Shown here piece after piece: positions 1,873 to 43,001 of a stretch of DNA of 48,626 bases. This DNA comes from a candidate division WOR-3 bacterium (GTDB taxonomy: Bacteria > Hydrothermota > UBA3073 > JACQXS01): NCBI GenBank assembly GCA_023129235.1, contig JAGMCN010000013.1:1-48626 (forward strand), in the 5' to 3' direction. The translations under genes and the position numbers were made by a program. Every line of letters starts with the position of its first letter. Position 1 is the stretch's first letter. The notes under the pieces were generated by a model. It worked only from the letters and a program-made list of their open reading frames with translations, did not search any database and was not told the DNA's origin.

Positions 1873-1897
1873 AAAATTCTAAAATGGATTTAGAAAT

Positions 1898-1989
1898 AAC
1901 CACAAAGGCTCAAAGACTCAAAGGTCACAAAGTTTCTAAAAATTATTTTTCGTTCTTTGTGTTCTTCGTGCCTCTGTGTCTTTGTGGTT
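1898..1989. repeat. Imperfect palindromic word-repeat element (AACCACAAAG ... CTTTGTGGTT termini)
   Basis: Left arm is aaccacaaag gctcaaag actcaaag gtcacaaag. Right arm is ctttgtg ttcttcgtg cctctgtgt ctttgtggtt. The 10-nt termini are perfectly complementary. Confidence 0.7.
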
Positions 1990-2018
1990 AAAATTTGTAG
2001 TTTAATCAGGAGGATATT

Positions 2019-3734: not shown

Positions 3735-3848
3735 AATCTGTAATCTACGTCCGCGTCCATCTGCGTTATCTGCGGGGAAAGAAAAGCTTTTTATCTTTGT
3801 GCGCTTTGTGGTTTAAAAATATTATATCTGTAAAATCTGTGGTTGCGG
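3735..3848. repeat. Word-repeat array (ATCTG/GCGT words, two ...GTGGTT ends)
   Basis: Sequence reads aatctgtaatctacgtccgcgtccatctgcgttatctgcgg ... ctttgtgcgctttgtggtt ... atctgtaaaatctgtggtt. It is the reverse-orientation vocabulary of the 39317-39429 element. Confidence 0.5.
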
Positions 3849-14068: not shown

Positions 14069-14134
14069 CTTTTAAAATCTACTTCTATAAAAGCATTTCG
14101 TCAACATTTTTTATCCGAGAGCCAGAACCTTTTT

Positions 14135-14190
14135 AACCACAGAAGGCACGGAGAAATAGATTGTGTTTAAAGGTTTAAGGGTTTAAAGGG
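14135..14190. repeat. Word-repeat array (AACCACAGAAGG... followed by GGTTTAAR octamers)
   Basis: Sequence reads aaccacagaaggcacggag ... aaaggttt aagggttt aaaggg. Confidence 0.5.
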
Positions 14191-15788: not shown

Positions 15789-15907
15789 TAGCACACAGAT
15801 TCACACAGATTGAAAAGATGAACACGGATTTAGATAAAATAAATTTTCTGTGGCAATCTGTTTTATCTCCCGTCAAGTCGGGACAGATGTGAATACCTGC
15901 GTGCTGA
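15789..15907. repeat. Degenerate palindromic word-repeat element containing the 19-mer core
   Basis: It contains tagcacacagattcacacagattgaaaagatgaacacggatt and a degenerate complementary arm (acagatgtgaatacctgcgtgctga), with an internal cccg-tcaagt-cggg hairpin. Confidence 0.6.
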
Positions 15908-16368: not shown

Positions 16369-16509
16369 AACCACAAAGAAATGATTAAATAAAATGCCAC
16401 GAAATCACCAAATCACAAAACTACACAAAAGAATTATATTATATAACTTTGGTGGAATTTAGCGTCTTAGTGTTTTCGTGGCAAATTAATCTTTGTGCCC
16501 TTTGTGGTT
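16369..16509. repeat. 141-bp imperfect palindromic word-repeat element (AACCACAAAG ... CTTTGTGGTT)
   Basis: Three complementary block pairs: aaccacaaag/ctttgtggtt, gccacgaaa/tttcgtggc, caccaaa/tttggtg. Confidence 0.7.
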
Positions 16510-18900: not shown

Positions 18901-18909
18901 CTCCATTTT

Positions 18910-19073
18910 AACCACGAATTATCCGAAGGATCCATATGGACACGAAAAAGATTAGCACACAGATTCACACAGATTAAAAAGATAATCACAGATTGCAGAA
19001 AAGATTAACCACAAAGGCACAAAGATTGGAGATTAAGGGTTTAAAGGTTCAGGGGTTCAAGGGGTTAGGAGTT
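18910..19073. repeat. Half palindromic element (left arm only) plus AACCACAAAG word and G-rich octamer array
   Basis: Sequence reads aaccacgaattatccgaaggatccatatggacacgaaaaagattagcacacagattcacacagatt..., then aaccacaaaggcacaaag, then gggtttaa aggttcag gggttcaa ggggttag gagtt. Confidence 0.7.
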
Positions 19074-19111
19074 TTGCGGAGATAAAAGGTTGGAGCGAGG
19101 GGGTCACAAGC

Positions 19112-21301
19112 TCAGGGTATTATGCGGATTACTTTCTTTGTTAGCTTATGAGCGGCTGTTGTGAGGGTTGCAAAATAGATGCCTGTCCCTAATTCTTTCG
19201 TATCCCAGTCTATCTTGTAACATCCCGGCTCTTTCTTTCCATTAACTAAAGTTTTTACACATCTTCCCGCAATATCATAAATCTTTAAAGAGATATGCTG
19301 TCTATTGGGTATGGAATACTGTATGCAGGTTTTCTGAATAAACGGATTAGGGTAAACTTCTAATTTTGCATTTTGCACTTTGTGTTTTGTGCTTTCTTCC
19401 ACTCCAGGAGTGTCATCTTGAAGCACCCACACCACCCCATCCTCATAACAGGTAACATAAACTCTGTTAGGAGTTGAATCTACAGCAATCCCATAAGGGG
19501 TATTCCCAACTGTTACTACTTGTATTACTCTGTCGTCCTTGCCATTGATAACAGAAATATCATTACTACCCTTGTTCGCTACATAAATGCGATTAGTCTT
19601 TGGATTGACGGTAACGCGGTGAGGGTACTTTCCGACTGGCACCTCAGCTGTTATAAAATTAAGTTCTCCGTCAATTACAGAAACAATACCATCCTTTATG
19701 TTATGAGTTACATAGAGCTTATCGGTGACAGGATTAACACAAATATCATAAGGACTGGAATTAACTGCTAATACAGATATTATTGAATCAGTCTCTCCGT
19801 CGATTGCATAAATACTGTTGCCATCGCTGTTTATTACATAGATATAATTAATATTGGGATTAACAAAGACTCTTTGAGGGTCACAAGCTAATGCTATTGT
19901 ATCTATAATTGAATAATTGCTCCGGTCAAGGACCAACAATCCGGAAATAGGATATCCCTTTGTTACATAAATACGGTTAGTATTTGGATTTACAGAAACA
20001 TCCTCGGTCTTTCCGTCCATTTTTATTATATCTGTAACATAATTAGTTAAACCATCTATTACTGACATTCTACCACCCCGCCCATGTGTAACATAAATTC
20101 TATTAGCGTCTGAGTCAACGCAGACATTGTGAGGGTTATAGTTAAGAATTATTGTATCCTTAACTGAACGGGCTATTTCACCAATTACAAAAATCTTGTT
20201 CTCTTCAACTGCCGCATAAACATTAAAAGTGTTTAGATTAATAGAAATGGCAGTAGGATGAAGAATCCCAAGAGGCACAACAGTTTCTACTGAGTTAGTT
20301 GCTCCATCAATAATATAAATATCATTAGTCCCGTAGTTTGTCACATAAATGTGATTAGTCTTTTGATTAATCAAAACATCCCAGGGTTTACCACCAATCG
20401 GCATTGCATCCACAATACCATTCGTTGCTCCATCAATGACATAAACTTTACCATCTCCACCACTCGCCACATAGATGCGATTAGTAGTGGGATTCACGGA
20501 AATATTCTGTAGATAAAAACCCACTTCCAATGTATCAACAATAGAATTGGTTGCTCCATCAATTACAGAAATATTATGATAACCTCCCCAACCATGGTAA
20601 TGTGACACATAAATACGGTTGGTATTTGGATTCACAGAAATACCATAAGGATTGCATCCAACTGGTATTGAATCTACAACCAAATTAGTCGTCTCGTCAA
20701 TCACAGAGATTTTACCATCAGGATTATTCCTGTGTGCTACATAGATTTGGTTAGTATTGGGATTTCTGGCAATACCACAAACTGCGCCCTTAACTATTAT
20801 CGTGTCTATCAGACTGTTAGTGGTTGCATCAATTACAGCAATCCTTCCGCTATAAACAGCTACATAAATACGATTAGTAGTTGCGTCAAATATAATTCCC
20901 TTAGGCCCATTACCCACTACAATTGTATCTATAACCAAATTGCTTATTCCATCAATAATAAGGACCTCGTCATCTTTGGTGCCGTATTCGGAGCCAGTCG
21001 TTACGTAAACAAAATGTGTATTCGGATTTACACAGAGATAATTAGGATATACCCCTAACGGGATTAATGCTACAATCTCATTACTTGCTCTATCAATCAC
21101 AGAAATATTCTTGCTGATATAGTTTGCCACATAAATGCGGTTAAGGACCGTGTCTACGGCAATACCCTTTGGAGAACTGGCGTTTCCAATTCTTGGACCT
21201 ATCTGTATAGTATACATAACTACAAGTTTTGCTTTTAGCTCTAAAGCAAAAAAAACAGACAAAATACTTAAAGTTGCTTTTAGACTTTTCTTCATCCTCA
21301 T
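19112..21301 (-). CDS. YVTN-family beta-propeller repeat protein with T9SS C-terminal sorting domain
   Basis: 729 aa with a signal peptide and about 14 repeats ending in N-R-I-Y-V-type motifs. The C-terminus (VYPNPF...LKIYDIAGR...GIYFATL) is a T9SS type A CTD. Confidence 0.85.
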   Translation of the reverse strand: MRMKKSLKATLSILSVFFALELKAKLVVMYTIQIGPRIGNASSPKGIAVDTVLNRIYVANYISKNISVIDRASNEIVALIPLGVYPNYLCVNPNTHFVYVTTGSEYGTKDDEVLIIDGISNLVIDTIVVGNGPKGIIFDATTNRIYVAVYSGRIAVIDATTNSLIDTIIVKGAVCGIARNPNTNQIYVAHRNNPDGKISVIDETTNLVVDSIPVGCNPYGISVNPNTNRIYVSHYHGWGGYHNISVIDGATNSIVDTLEVGFYLQNISVNPTTNRIYVASGGDGKVYVIDGATNGIVDAMPIGGKPWDVLINQKTNHIYVTNYGTNDIYIIDGATNSVETVVPLGILHPTAISINLNTFNVYAAVEENKIFVIGEIARSVKDTIILNYNPHNVCVDSDANRIYVTHGRGGRMSVIDGLTNYVTDIIKMDGKTEDVSVNPNTNRIYVTKGYPISGLLVLDRSNYSIIDTIALACDPQRVFVNPNINYIYVINSDGNSIYAIDGETDSIISVLAVNSSPYDICVNPVTDKLYVTHNIKDGIVSVIDGELNFITAEVPVGKYPHRVTVNPKTNRIYVANKGSNDISVINGKDDRVIQVVTVGNTPYGIAVDSTPNRVYVTCYEDGVVWVLQDDTPGVEESTKHKVQNAKLEVYPNPFIQKTCIQYSIPNRQHISLKIYDIAGRCVKTLVNGKKEPGCYKIDWDTKELGTGIYFATLTTAAHKLTKKVIRIIP

Positions 21302-21304
21302 CCT

Positions 21305-22198
21305 TTAAAGTTTTATAATTTTACGTAAAAACTTCCTTCCACTTATTTTAAATCTCACAAAATATACTCCTGTAGCCACCGATTTCCCGCTCTTGTCCTT
21401 TCCATCCCAAATAACTTGATTAGCCTCGTCGTTCAAATTAAGGGTTTCTTTAATAACTTTACCCGAGAGATCATAAATTGTTATTTGAGGTGATTCCCGT
21501 TCGCCACTTCCTAAAGAGTAACGAATGAATACGCTATTCCTAAATGGATTAGGAGATACCTCAAATTTAAATGGTTTGTTCCTTTCTTCCTCTTCCATCC
21601 CTACCTCCGTTCCTGATATATAAGCATCATCAATCCAAAACCACACATATGCACCTGCATCACTAATATCACCGCTACCTGCCCGGGTTGAGGCACAAAA
21701 TTTGATGCCACTCACTCTATCGGAAGCCCCAAATATTTTCCCCCATTTTGTCCAAATTAGATTATTTCCGGAAGTAGACCATTGACTTACCCACTCATTA
21801 TTTATCTTCACAAAAATATCTACAGACCAACTTGCCCGAAATGAGGCCTGACCATACCGATCCCCACCATTTTTAAAATAAACCATGCAGGTACAATTTA
21901 TTACAGGCGTTATTTCCTGAAATACACGAGCTCCTGCAGAAGCTGACCTTGGATAATCAAAATGATACCCTGCTCCTGCAGTGGCAAATAATTTACAGCT
22001 ACGAGGAAATGAATGACAGCACGTGTCCGGCGAGGCATCAACGCTTGCACCAGCGCCCTCAGTACTACTTGAAGATGTATCAATTGTCCAGCTTGTATCC
22101 CAGGGAGCTTCGTCAAAGCCGGGGTTAATTAAAAGGTTCTCGGTAACCGCAGTAATGGGAAAAACAACTAATCCTACAAGAAATAATAGTTTTTGCAT
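21305..22198 (-). CDS. Secreted CBM4/9-like jelly-roll protein with T9SS C-terminal sorting domain
   Basis: 297 aa. It has a signal peptide, an NLLINPGFDE opening typical of carbohydrate-binding modules, and the CTD VSPNPF...ITIYDLSGK...GVYFVRF. Confidence 0.7.
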   Translation of the reverse strand: MQKLLFLVGLVVFPITAVTENLLINPGFDEAPWDTSWTIDTSSSSTEGAGASVDASPDTCCHSFPRSCKLFATAGAGYHFDYPRSASAGARVFQEITPVINCTCMVYFKNGGDRYGQASFRASWSVDIFVKINNEWVSQWSTSGNNLIWTKWGKIFGASDRVSGIKFCASTRAGSGDISDAGAYVWFWIDDAYISGTEVGMEEEERNKPFKFEVSPNPFRNSVFIRYSLGSGERESPQITIYDLSGKVIKETLNLNDEANQVIWDGKDKSGKSVATGVYFVRFKISGRKFLRKIIKL

Positions 22199-22218
22199 AT
22201 CGGCGTTGCCTTTTATTA

Positions 22219-22247
22219 TATATACTTCAAAACTTTGATTTTGTCAA
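22219..22247 (-). promoter_or_regulatory. Putative sigma70 promoter (TTGACA-17-TATATA) for the T9SS cargo pair
   Basis: On the minus strand, -35 is at 22242-22247 and -10 at 22219-22224. Confidence 0.45.
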
Positions 22248-22260
22248 GAAGAAACTGCTA

Positions 22261-22338
22261 CAGAGGACACGGAAAAGATTAGCACACAGATTCACACAGT
22301 TTGGGAGTTTAAGGAGTTGAGGAGTTAGGGAGTTAGAG
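22261..22338. repeat. Partial left-arm element with 19-mer core followed by an (RGGAGTTR)x4 octamer array
   Basis: Sequence reads gacacggaaaagattagcacacagattcacacag, then ggagttta aggagttg aggagtta gggagtta gag. The last unit overlaps the gpsA stop codon. Confidence 0.55.
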
Positions 22339-23304: not shown

Positions 23305-23609
23305 TGTAATAGTTCAGTTTAAATATCCGCACATAGATATTACACGCCCGCCCCGACTATGCGGGAGACAAAACAGATTACCACGGGAGGAAATCAATTT
23401 TGTGCTACTCTCGTGCAAATCTCGTGGTCTACAGAAGGAATATAACCCAAGAATTTTTTTTGTCAAATAAAAATTTTTTCTCTTGACACTTCTAAACTTA
23501 CCTTGTTAGTCTCAAAAGAGGCAAGAAAAATGAATGTTAATAAGTTGACAGACGTGACGGGGCAAGCCCCTGCCGTCCTGCCAGGCAAGGGATTGGGGAT
23601 GTCAAGGGA

Positions 23610-23630
23610 TGTGGACAACTCTGTTGATAA
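23610..23630. promoter_or_regulatory. Two adjacent DnaA-box-like 9-mers upstream of dnaA
   Basis: tgtggacaa (23610-23618; reverse complement TTGTCCACA) and tgttgataa (23622-23630; reverse complement TTATCAACA). Each is one mismatch from TTATCCACA. Confidence 0.5.
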
Positions 23631-23675: not shown

Positions 23676-24992
23676 ATGTTAAATGGTGCGAAGAATTTGT
23701 GGGAAGAAGTGCTTGGCCAAATAAAGCCCAAGATTCCTTCCCAGAATTACGAAACATGGCTTGAGCCAACAGAGGGTGAAACGCTTACTCAAAATACTCT
23801 CTGGGTTAGAGTCCCAAACGCTTTTTTTATAGATTGGATTGAGGAGCATTATCACACGAGTATTTACGAAATATTGGGGACCCTAAATCAGGAGCATTTA
23901 AAGGTTAAGTATAAGTCTGTCGAAGGAGGGAAAGAGAAGAGTGTTCCGAGTAGAGTTTATCAGCCGGACTCATCTCATCTACAACCGAGATATACTTTTG
24001 ATAACTTTATTATAGGTGAATCCAACAACTTTGCTCGAGCGGCATCGCTTGCTGTAGCCAAAACCCCGGGCAGGCAATATAACCCACTTTTTATTTACGG
24101 AAGCGTGGGACTTGGCAAAACACACTTGCTTCAAGCGGTTGGGAATTATATAAAAGAACATTTTTCTGGATTGAAAGTATATTACCTTGGTTGCGAAGAA
24201 TTTATGACTGAGATGATAGATGCTATTCAGATAAATAGAGTGGTGCAATTTAAAAATAAATATCGGAGAAAAGATGCTCTCTTAATAGATGACATTCAAT
24301 TTCTTGAGGGAAAAGAGGGGTTGCAAGAAGAGATTTTTCATACTTTTAATGCTTTATATGATGAAGGGAAGCAAGTTATTTTTTCATCGGATAGACCACC
24401 AGGAGCGTTAGCAAATCTTGAGGAGAGGCTTGTCTCAAGATTTCAGGGAGGCCTTGTTTGTGATATAAAGCCTCCGTCCTTTGAGACGAGGATAGCAATT
24501 TTAAAGAGAAAAGCGTCTTTGGCGGAGGTGCAAGTGTCTGATGAGGTTATTTCATTCATTGCAACCGAGATAAGAGGTAACATTCGGGAACTTGAAGGAG
24601 CTCTTATTAAATTATTTGCTTTTGCTTCGCTTACTAATGGAGTTATAGATATTGAGAGGGCAAGAGAACTTTTGCGTGATTTGCTTTCAAGGAATGGCCG
24701 CGAAGTAACTATGGGGAAAATTCAGCAGGTCGTGGCAAATCATTATAATATTTCATTAGCCAGTATGAGAGGAAAGCGTAGAATGCAATCTATTGTGCTC
24801 CCAAGAGATGTGGCAATATATTTATCAAGAGAATATACGACATCCTCATTAAAAGAAATAGGAAAAACTTTTGGCGGAAGAGACCACACTACCATAATTC
24901 ATGCTTATAACAAGATAAAAAAATTATTAAACAGAAACAACGAACTCTCCGAAGAAGTTAATAACATCGTAAAGTTAATAACCTGTTCCTAA
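23676..24992 (+). CDS. dnaA: Chromosomal replication initiator protein DnaA
   Basis: 438 aa with Walker A (GSVGLGKTHLLQA), LLIDDIQFL, sensor motifs, and the C-terminal DNA-binding domain (GGRDHTTIIHAYNKI). Confidence 0.95.
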   Translation: MLNGAKNLWEEVLGQIKPKIPSQNYETWLEPTEGETLTQNTLWVRVPNAFFIDWIEEHYHTSIYEILGTLNQEHLKVKYKSVEGGKEKSVPSRVYQPDSSHLQPRYTFDNFIIGESNNFARAASLAVAKTPGRQYNPLFIYGSVGLGKTHLLQAVGNYIKEHFSGLKVYYLGCEEFMTEMIDAIQINRVVQFKNKYRRKDALLIDDIQFLEGKEGLQEEIFHTFNALYDEGKQVIFSSDRPPGALANLEERLVSRFQGGLVCDIKPPSFETRIAILKRKASLAEVQVSDEVISFIATEIRGNIRELEGALIKLFAFASLTNGVIDIERARELLRDLLSRNGREVTMGKIQQVVANHYNISLASMRGKRRMQSIVLPRDVAIYLSREYTTSSLKEIGKTFGGRDHTTIIHAYNKIKKLLNRNNELSEEVNNIVKLITCS

Positions 24993-25164
24993 TTTTTTAG
25001 TGTGGAAAACTTGGTATCTCCCAACACAGTTATTAACACTTTTATCGTTCCTAAAACATAATCCCTATACCCTTTTATATAACTTATTAACTTATCCACA
25101 TTACCTATTACAACACATTATTCTTTATTATAATCTTTATCCTTAATATTTGGGGAAAACTTTA
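24993..25164. promoter_or_regulatory. Candidate oriC segment (DnaA boxes plus AT-rich tract)
   Basis: One perfect TTATCCACA at 25092-25100. TGTGGAAAA at 25001-25009 is one mismatch in reverse orientation. Two-mismatch boxes occur near 25030 and 25137. The remainder is very AT-rich. Confidence 0.5.
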
Positions 25165-30235: not shown

Positions 30236-30401
30236 AACCACGAATGACACGAATTATCACGAAAAAGATTAGCACACAGATTCACACAGATTGGAAAGAT
30301 AGTCACAGATTATATTCTATCAAGACTGTGTAAATCTATTTTATCTGTGAACATCTGTGTGCAGTTTTCTAATTCGTGTCCATTTGTGTTAATTCGTGGT
30401 T
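30236..30401. repeat. Full-length 166-bp imperfect palindromic element (AACCACGAA ... TTCGTGGTT), copy 1
   Basis: About 93% identical (10 substitutions and 1 indel) to 35232-35398. It contains the 19-mer core at 30271-30289. Confidence 0.85.
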
Positions 30402-35231: not shown

Positions 35232-35398
35232 AACCACGAAGGATGCGAATTATCACGAAAAAAGGTTAGCACACAGATTCACACAGATTGGAAAGATGGT
35301 CACAGATTATATTCTATCAAGACTGTGCAAATCTATTTTATCTGTGAATATCTGTGTGCAATTTTCTAATTCGTGTCCATTAGCGTTAATTCGTGGTT
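35232..35398. repeat. Full-length 167-bp imperfect palindromic element, copy 2
   Basis: Near-identical twin of 30236-30401, with the 19-mer core at 35268-35286. Confidence 0.85.
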
Positions 35399-39309: not shown

Positions 39310-39316
39310 TGTATTG

Positions 39317-39429
39317 GACGCAGATGAACGCAGATAGACACAGATTACTTGATAGACAGAGATAGAGATTTGAGATGGAGCTTTTTCTCTATCTCTATCT
39401 CGAGCCTCAACTCTGTGTCCTCTGTGGTT
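39317..39429. repeat. Word-repeat element (GCAGAT words ... CTCTGTGGTT) with central strong hairpin
   Basis: Sequence reads ggacgcagatgaacgcagatagacacagatt. A 14-bp stem pairs 39354-39367 with 39387-39400 at 13 of 14 positions. It ends ctctgtgtcctctgtggtt followed by T-runs. Confidence 0.55.
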
Positions 39430-39491
39430 TTTGCATTTTTCACTTGACAAAACGGGAGTTTTAGCACATATAATATACAATGGAGGTGGTT

Positions 39492-42821: not shown

Positions 42822-42840
42822 TAGGAATAAACTACTTAAA

Positions 42841-42986
42841 AGATAGCACGCAGATATTCACAGATAAAACAGACTTACACAACAAAGTGTTATTTTTTAT
42901 ACAATCTGTGATAATCTTTTCAATTTGTGTAAATCTGTGTGCTAATGATTTTTCCATACGGATCCTTCGGACGTGTAATTCGTGTT
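42841..42986. repeat. Palindromic word-repeat element, opposite orientation of the 18910 subfamily
   Basis: The right arm (aatctgtgataatc...aatctgtgtgctaat...ccatacggatccttcgg...aattcgtgtt) is approximately the reverse complement of 18910-18994. Confidence 0.7.
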
Positions 42987-43001
42987 CGGGTATTGGGAAT
43001 C

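Follow-up and report, generated by a model that had tools for sequence, protein, structure and literature searches.

The contig JAGMCN010000013.1 of a candidate division WOR-3 bacterium (assembly GCA_023129235.1) was analysed over 48,626 nucleotides (positions 1 to 48,626 of the forward strand, hereafter the window), and the subject of this work is a pair of near-identical compound palindromes, copy 1 located between xseB and dxs and copy 2 located 5 kb further on. The larger open reading frames (ORFs) of the window all code for housekeeping functions (ileS, lspA, serS, rph, queF, gpsA, dnaA, tsf, rpsB, rpsI, rplM, folK, xseAB, dxs, coaX, ybeY and phoH), and no transposase, RAYT or GxxExxY gene was found among the ORFs of the 48-kb window. 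A preliminary description of this DNA, made from the sequence alone, was confirmed: the two copies are imperfect palindromes of 166 and 167 bp, and their differences amount to exactly 10 substitutions and one indel, with an identity of 93.4%. Their similarity ends abruptly at AACCAC on the left and at GTGGTT on the right, the flanks being unrelated. Copy 1 begins 5 nt past the stop codon of xseB (Exonuc_VII_S) and ends 32 nt ahead of dxs, also in agreement with that description; copy 2 starts 5 nt past a DUF1858 gene and is followed by a NUDIX gene.

In the arms of these elements, units with the form NNN-CAC-NNNN, each about 10 nt long, follow one another as an array, and the element is modular. 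The inner palindrome of the twins is made of CACAGAT units (GCACACAGAT TCACACAGAT ... AGAT ... CACAGAT). The heptamers correspond to the paired segments, with the 3-nt spacers opposing each other as internal loops. RNA folding predicted long hairpins of -66.5 kcal/mol for copy 1 and -62.3 kcal/mol for copy 2 (z about -9), with an AT-rich stem of about 60 pairs, and DNA folding of the palindrome gave -37.1 kcal/mol (z -7.6). The same 14-nt loop and compound structure are found at two separate loci. With a size of 166 bp, terminal inverted repeats (AACCACGAAT...ATTCGTGGTT) and only spurious short ORFs, the element exhibits the small, non-coding organisation of a miniature inverted-repeat transposable element (MITE).

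Dxs similarity shows the organism to be related to candidate division WOR-3/Stahlbacteria. The occupation of the corresponding sites was compared in two syntenic close relatives, L120 (Dxs 91% identical) and L121 (Dxs 85%). The preliminary description had proposed to look for empty sites in relatives and for target-site duplications; the former were found, and none of the latter was clear. The gap between xseB and dxs is 203 nt in the window, compared to 19 nt in L120 and 37 nt in L121, where the copy 1 site is empty, and copy 1 is on this ground an insertion in the lineage of the window. The site between coaX and the CNNM gene is also empty in L120. With six copies in the window and empty sites in L120 and L121, the element is dispersed and polymorphic for presence and absence, as are MITEs. 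The short element has been gained at new sites and was copied as a short form: since the twins share the 14-nt loop and the compound structure, and since one of their two loci is empty in both relatives, it is the short form itself that was copied. The DUF1858-NUDIX site is filled in the window, in L120 and in L121, but it has been rebuilt from different modules. In L120 the element shows the same right end, TTCGTGTCCATTAGTGTTAATTCGTGGTT, with a left part AACCACAGATGAATGCAGATGAATGCAGAT... starting with the canonical AACCACAGAT, and in L121 it consists of the loop and the right arm only. The modules are exchangeable at one locus. The older copy at the NUDIX site, or its sibling, likely seeded the xseB-dxs copy 5 kb away.

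The inner left arm of the twins includes a 19-mer, AGCACACAGATTCACACAG, reported in the preliminary description to occur five times and always on the plus strand. The five exact occurrences were retrieved at 15790, 18954, 22281, 30271 and 35268, all on the plus strand, against none expected (100 shuffles). A sixth copy, with 2 mismatches, is present on the minus strand (42925-42943) within a full diverged element, and the plus orientation consequently applies to five of the six copies. We found also that the window contains 27 arms of phased CAC heptamers versus 4.5 in shuffles, nearly all of them intergenic, and the reading of its intergenic regions gave at least 12 related elements (Table 1). 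These elements vary in the 4 nt following CAC (CACAGAT, CACGAAT, CACAAAG, CACAGAG, CACGAGA), most of them start with AACCAC or end with GTGGTT, and some, such as the one at 39316-39432, are hybrids of arms with unlike heptamers. TTAA is present directly 5' of CCAC in four window copies; it is also a natural extension of the palindrome.

Table 1. Twin palindromes, their parts and related elements in the window. Positions are those of the window; the strand is given where an orientation was assigned.
Feature	Positions	Strand	Description
Copy 1, 166-bp compound palindrome	30236-30401	+	Between xseB and dxs; CACGAAT-type outer arms around a CACAGAT-type inner palindrome
Copy 1, outer left arm	30236-30264	+	AACCACGAAT GACACGAATT ATCACGAAA; three CAC units, period ~10 nt
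Copy 1, inner left arm	30270-30311	+	TAGCACACAGAT TCACACAGAT TGGAAAGATAGTCACAGATT; includes the 19-mer
Copy 1, loop	30312-30325	+	From the minimum-free-energy structure
Copy 1, inner right arm	30326-30362	+	Reverse complement is GCACACAGATGTTCACAGATAAAATAGATTTACACAG; block kept in 8/8 window-type copies
Copy 1, outer right arm	30370-30401	+	Ends with ATTCGTGGTT
Copy 2, 167-bp twin of copy 1	35232-35398	+	Between the DUF1858 gene and the NUDIX gene
Diverged full copy	~42840-42991	-	Between coaX and the CNNM/CBS gene; 19-mer with 2 mismatches; site empty in L120
Copy of the inner palindrome only	15789-15906	+	No CACGAAT outer arms; divergent intergenic region; nested mini-hairpin at 15868-15887
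Left-half copy (outer left and inner left arm)	18909-19005	+	Right after a radical-SAM gene; joined at 19006 to a CACAAAG-type arm and GGGTT-type modules
Left-arm fragment GGACACGGAAAAGATTAGCACACAGATTCACACAGTTTG	22251-22303	+	Followed by GGAGTT-type modules as far as the gpsA stop codon
Related palindrome, CACAAAG type	1897-1990		TAACCACAAAGG...CTTTGTGGTTA
Related nested palindrome	16369-16509		AACCACAAAG...CTTTGTGGTT around GCCACGAAATCAC...GTGTTTTCGTGGC
Related hybrid element	39316-39432		Left arm GGACGCAGATGAACGCAGATAGACACAGAT, right arm CTCTGTGTCCTCTGTGGTT; heptamers differ between arms
Cluster of right-arm modules	3735-3845		ATCTTTGTGCGCTTTGTGGTT and ATCTGTAAAATCTGTGGTT
Solo left arm TTAACCACAGAAGGCACGGAG	14133-14190	+	Followed by GGTTTAAGGG modules
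Small related palindrome	23385-23455		Upstream of dnaA; TACCACGGGAGG...CTCTCGTGCAAATCTCGTGGT

The preliminary description had considered the left (plus-strand) arm to be preferentially conserved. This did not stand, as the right-arm block ATCTrTTTTATCTGTGAATATCTGyGTGC is retained in all eight window-type copies, among which the left 19-mer has lost 10 nt in L094a and is not present in L121 or L077. Its suggestion that a sequence motif is conserved, and not merely a hairpin, was borne out, more clearly than had been expected, by the occurrence of the decamer GCACACAGAT and of the heptamer CACAGAT in at least 118 loci (see below) and by the weakness of covariation. Compensatory change between the arms, which it had suggested to look for, was detected only weakly: 82.1% of the cells of the window-type copies are paired versus 80.4% in shuffles, and their covariation score was equalled or exceeded in 94 of 500 shuffles, which is the background level. 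The orientation of the copies (five plus, one minus) could be tied neither to transcription, the copies being in co-directional, convergent and divergent contexts, nor to replication, since plus-oriented copies lie on both sides of the probable origin with no replichore bias (n = 6). This chromosomal origin is probably within the window at about 23-28 kb, where it was placed because of dnaA (23676-24992), of the sole perfect DnaA box of the window (at 25092) and of the minimum of the cumulative GC skew at 26-28 kb; boxes with one mismatch are present at 23610 and 23622, and TTTTCCACA at 25001. A scan of the elements for sigma-70 promoters and terminators gave nothing above chance, with no canonical promoter or terminator.

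The arm motif was then found far beyond this lineage. A scan for GCACACAGATNNNCACAGAT over 596 Gb, with one genome per species, gave at least 118 loci, distributed in Cyanobacteria, Planctomycetota, Acidobacteriota, Bacteroidota, Pseudomonadota, NC10, Verrucomicrobiota, Nitrospirota, Chloroflexota and others, and a viral scan gave 3 loci. By our own estimate, about 70 matches to the scan motif would be expected by chance in 596 Gb. Among the matches listed, AACCACAGAT is found directly 5' of the match in more than 100 of 132 hits, which argues that the hits are not due to chance, and conservation ends at positions -11 and +20. The canonical 30-nt arm is accordingly AACCACAGAT-GCACACAGAT-NAACACAGAT, and an inverted partner is present in about half of the loci listed. 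In the 45 paired elements, whose total length ranges from 65 to 495 nt, agreement at the free spacers is no higher within an element (0.42/0.44) than between elements (0.42/0.47), and the two outermost positions co-vary strongly, with an agreement at position 2 of 0.89 within versus 0.51 between elements. What is conserved is thus the sequence of the heptamers and, at the termini, the match between the two ends, a pattern predicted by protein recognition of both ends. Copies 1 and 2 have the features that define this superfamily, namely AACCAC...GTGGTT termini and at least 2-3 NNNCACNNNN units with a period of 9-11 nt, and the unit GCACACAGAT is present both in them and in the cross-phylum consensus. 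A 20-mer specific to the window was retrieved at only 5 loci in the metagenome scan, 2 of them being coding coincidences; the window elements are for this reason a lineage-restricted subtype of the superfamily.

Canonical arms are also carried by several contigs of a 'Bathyarchaeota' metagenome-assembled genome (MAG), JAIVTC (L018, L020, L047, L059, L060, L087), and by a 'Nanoarchaeota' MAG (L005, L068); either these contigs are bacterial and were mis-binned, or true archaea carry the arms. In phased-CAC elements from unrelated phyla (L020, L047, L063, L077, L109, L116), the loops contain or adjoin a second palindromic module that is also widespread, GTCATTGCGAG...GCAATC or GTCATTTCGACCGAAGGGAGAAATC.

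Clustering of the ORFs surrounding the arms showed that, among the matches listed, the only specifically recurrent protein is GxxExxY (TIGR04256, PF13366), present in 8 of the at least 118 loci and always located between or against the arms; no transposase family is recurrent beside the arms in the listed loci. The start codon of GxxExxY is often inside an arm, MNTD... being read from CAGATGAACACAGAT. In the converse approach, a tblastn search gave 8 GxxExxY genes carried by plasmids and chromids from 8 genera; 5-6 of these genes were flanked by arms of various heptamer types, and the gene of Bacteroides finegoldii (L134) is flanked by CACCACAGAGGACGCAGAGGACACGGAG ... CTCTGTGACCTCTGTGTCCTCTGTGGTG. 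In the same way, 87 of the 120 closest homologues of one GxxExxY protein start with M-[NDH]-[TA]-[DN] and 17 start with PQ[MIV][NDH][TA][DNE], N-termini which correspond to translations of the arm. Three more contexts exhibited an arm-ORF-arm or arm-ORF-[arm-loop-arm] organisation, one of these contigs also carrying a CACGAAT-type palindrome like the outer arms of the window. The GxxExxY model is a minimal single-domain PD-(D/E)XK nuclease of about 125 aa (pLDDT 91.9) in which D71, E81 and K83 are invariant. The fold search gave generic PD-(D/E)XK matches only (lambda-exonuclease, Cas4 and Hjc types, TM about 0.5), and no solved relative was found by sequence search of the PDB. The family is large, one search having matched at least 7,944 clusters with E<=1e-10, and PDDEXK_3 is listed as 'Unknown', with multiple transfers between divisions, in the PD-(D/E)XK census (PMC3424549). 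A tblastn search against isolated phages found nothing; from this and from the 3 loci of the viral scan, the family is not phage-borne.

Several GxxExxY cassettes are wedged, with almost no spacer, between co-directional essential genes: fabD-fabG, radA and an FAD protein gene, and a pair of MacB/FtsX-type permease genes (loci L135, Sphingomonas; L134, Bacteroides finegoldii; L140). In one case, between two MacB/FtsX-type permease genes, there are zero spare nucleotides. The repeats also encode parts of annotated proteins: they are the source of N-termini like MNTDEHR and EPQMNTDEHR, and at the C-terminus the reading continues into the right arm. Many GxxExxY genes were found on contigs of 0.5-2 kb, consistent with repeats breaking short-read assemblies.

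Altogether, the twins are probably two recent copies of a small, non-coding and non-autonomous mobile repeat, similar to MITEs and to REPINs (doublets of repetitive extragenic palindromic (REP) sequences), which belongs to a cross-phylum superfamily whose longer members enclose a GxxExxY nuclease gene. Taken alone, the window element is nothing out of the ordinary, being a selfish palindromic repeat. Of the two outcomes that the preliminary description had set against its own proposal, the first, a selfish MITE-like repeat, is largely what was observed, insertion polymorphism having been shown, and a known named family was not found, with no match in Rfam or in the searchable literature. Rfam covariance models gave no hit in the window and, in 16 related loci, one tRNA only, the remainder being noise at E values up to 10. 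No description of the repeat or motif was found in the searchable open-access literature, where the motif strings, also in variants with other heptamer types, gave only coincidences with primers and where no paper on GxxExxY, PDDEXK_3, PF13366 or TIGR04256 deals with repeats. The superfamily, with its unusual phased-heptamer architecture and its candidate nuclease partner, is thus apparently undescribed.

A further and more tentative proposal, which we regard as possible rather than probable, is that these palindromes are the non-autonomous form of a pan-bacterial mobile cassette whose autonomous form is arm-GxxExxY-arm, PF13366/TIGR04256 being the transposase or homing-type nuclease that reads the phased CAC heptamers. 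As to the mechanism behind the main reading, we infer that a protein binds the heptamers, which are helically phased on each of the two arms, and mobilises the element in trans; hairpin or cruciform geometry may serve as the substrate. GxxExxY is the best candidate for this mobiliser, by analogy with RAYT and REPINs, because no other gene accompanies the arms and because its nuclease site is intact. In an operon, an inserted element would become part of the transcript as a hairpin (about -66 kcal/mol); as this hairpin has no U-tract terminator, the downstream dxs would still be expressed. Effects at the level of the host, for instance processing by RNase III or stabilisation of the mRNA, would be secondary.

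Several observations weigh against the main reading and the mechanism proposed for it. No clear target-site duplication was detected, the two empty-site junctions giving 0-4 bp with an ambiguity due to TTAA, and the 4-nt flanks of the 45 paired elements of the superfamily are more often inverted than direct repeats. Hybrid elements, with unlike heptamers on each arm, are awkward for one protein acting on two identical ends. No GxxExxY gene is present in the ~48-kb window or in about 90 kb of DNA from the WOR-3 relatives. The association between arms and GxxExxY is correlative, and the gene could be a cargo or a preferred neighbour. Finally, the set of at least 118 loci was chosen by the motif itself, and the 120 homologues with arm-encoded N-termini represent one related clade and not independent samples.

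Other explanations of the palindromes were considered. A function for the host at the RNA level, where the hairpins would be RNase III sites, stabilisers of mRNA 3' ends or attenuators between cistrons in the way of REP or ERIC (enterobacterial repetitive intergenic consensus) sequences, would account for the high stability of the hairpins, for the location of copies 5-25 nt past stop codons and for the imperfect pairs of the twins, which on the sense strand are G-U without exception (4 and 6, versus 0 on the antisense strand). However, this G-U bias is limited to the twins, which count as one event, and other copies fold equally well or better in antisense (-35.9 sense versus -49.1 antisense for 16369-16509). 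Covariation at the background level, the inconsistent orientation relative to flanking genes, the absence of a U-tract or canonical terminator and the fact that close relatives do without the xseB-dxs copy also make this function unlikely. The sequence, rather than the pairing, is what is conserved, and together with the heptamer period of about 10 bp and the presence of the same motif in many phyla this would agree with arms that are binding-site arrays, with heptamers on one face of the helix, for a chromosomal nucleoid-associated or regulatory protein, the arrays being spread by recombination or gene conversion; TTAACCACA is one mismatch off a DnaA box. We find this improbable. The 4 nt after CAC vary between elements of one genome, which is unfit for a single conserved factor, the new insertions are at unrelated sites with sharp borders, and the window shows no enrichment in DnaA-box-like matches (18 versus 14.4 expected). 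To our knowledge, there is no universally conserved protein with the specificity of these arms.

The absence of a target-site duplication and the hairpin geometry would also be expected for a REP/REPIN or for an IS200/IS605-type palindrome-associated transposable element, moved in single-stranded form by a Y1 HUH transposase (RAYT/TnpA) encoded elsewhere, and the TTAA located 5' of CCAC in four window copies recalls the insertion of IS608-type elements 3' of a fixed tetranucleotide. This TTAA may nevertheless simply prolong the palindrome (TTAACCAC...GTGGTTAA), the arms consist of decamers in tandem and not of the 20-40-nt REP hairpin with 5' GTAG, and no orientation bias relative to the probable origin was observed. 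As no Y1 transposase is present in the window and none is recurrent among the listed superfamily loci, a mobilisation of this type seems very improbable. We give hardly any weight, and slightly less again, to the idea that the short palindromes are solo-arm scars of deleted GxxExxY cassettes, themselves immobile. The continuous range of element lengths (65-495 nt), the arm-gene-[arm-loop-arm] arrangement and the frequency of half-elements and mosaics would fit such an origin, but the short form was copied, as shown by the loop and compound structure common to the twins at two loci and by the empty xseB-dxs locus in both relatives, and the loops of the window-type elements carry no trace of GxxExxY coding sequence. 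Recent copying of a non-autonomous repeat is the reading that we retain for the twins.

Additional features of the window were observed around the other elements. Two genes of proteins sorted by the type IX secretion system (T9SS), located at 19112-21301 (NHL beta-propeller) and 21305-22198, are flanked in the window by two half-elements in direct orientation (18909-22332) and are absent in L121, where the distance from the radical-SAM gene to gpsA is 62 nt (2586-2649). This suggests that a 3.4-kb segment with the T9SS-sorted-protein genes was gained or lost in a repeat-associated way. The families of direct repeats at 19542-21154, whose period is about 126 nt, are coding repeats of the NHL/beta-propeller protein (19112-21301) and are outside the palindrome system. 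Short tandem modules of GGGTT/GGAGTT type (e.g. GGAGATTAAGGGTTTAAAGGTTCAGGGGTTCAAGGGGTTAGGAGTT) are repeatedly located after half-elements (14160-14190, 19030-19075, 22300-22330) and may represent one more module type of this mosaic system. The right arm of the 15789-15906 copy contains a mini-hairpin of 20 nt, TCCCGTCAAGTCGGGACAGA, nested at 15868-15887, and no other copy has one.

If the link with GxxExxY holds, it would give a role to PF13366, a very large orphan family listed as 'unknown' in the PD-(D/E)XK census, and would represent a second partnership between an enzyme and a repeat beside REP-RAYT, common to several phyla and with a PD-(D/E)XK instead of an HUH enzyme. These repeats also have practical consequences, as they break metagenome assemblies, many GxxExxY genes being on contigs of less than 2 kb, and create spurious ORFs and false N-termini such as MNTDEHR. 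The elements wedge into essential operons, as in xseB-dxs, fabD-fabG and the MacB/FtsX-type permease pair.

Among known systems, the elements resemble REPIN-RAYT (Bertels & Rainey 2011, PMC3116915) in being short, non-coding, hairpin-forming inverted doublets with many intergenic copies, in the presence of one small enzyme gene flanked by the repeats and in their mosaic clusters similar to bacterial interspersed mosaic elements (BIMEs). As regards the REP unit, however, only the doublet geometry is common, since tandem units with a period of about 10 nt replace the hairpin with GTAG; the linked gene codes for a PD-(D/E)XK nuclease (PF13366) and not for an HUH Y1 enzyme, and the arm sequence is common to several phyla, whereas REPs are lineage-specific. 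An assignment to REP/REPIN-RAYT was rejected, with no REP/GTAG unit and no arm-flanked RAYT in the window or in the listed superfamily loci. With Correia/NEMIS (neisserial miniature insertion sequences), ERIC, RUP (repeat unit of pneumococcus) and Nezha, the elements share a size of 65-170 bp, terminal inverted repeats, an intergenic location with insertions inside operons, insertion polymorphism between strains and long RNA hairpins. They differ from them by their phased-heptamer inverted repeat and cross-phylum distribution, and two classical marks of MITEs present in those families, the target-site duplication and a parent insertion sequence with a DDE transposase, were not found here. An integron attC site was also rejected, as the ends are AACCAC...GTGGTT then C, compared to RYYYAAC...GTTRRRY for attC core sites, and the neighbours are housekeeping genes, and so was an intrinsic terminator, as no terminator-like site overlaps the elements and their stem is AT-rich, with about 60 pairs.

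The 23S rRNA intervening sequences of Leptospira/Coxiella type consist of inverted-repeat stems around an ORF of about 120-130 aa inside an essential transcription unit, where the processable stem is tolerated. By analogy, the architecture of the full-length cassettes appears similar to that of the intervening sequences with an ORF; unlike them, the cassettes are hosted by protein-coding operons and their ORF is GxxExxY and not a four-helix-bundle protein. The window elements themselves were not assigned to this class, no rRNA being present in the window. TnsA of Tn7 and Rpn/YhgA (PDDEXK_2) differ from GxxExxY, which consists of one minimal domain (about 125 aa) with generic fold matches and no solved sequence relative, but they provide a precedent for PD-(D/E)XK enzymes in DNA mobility.

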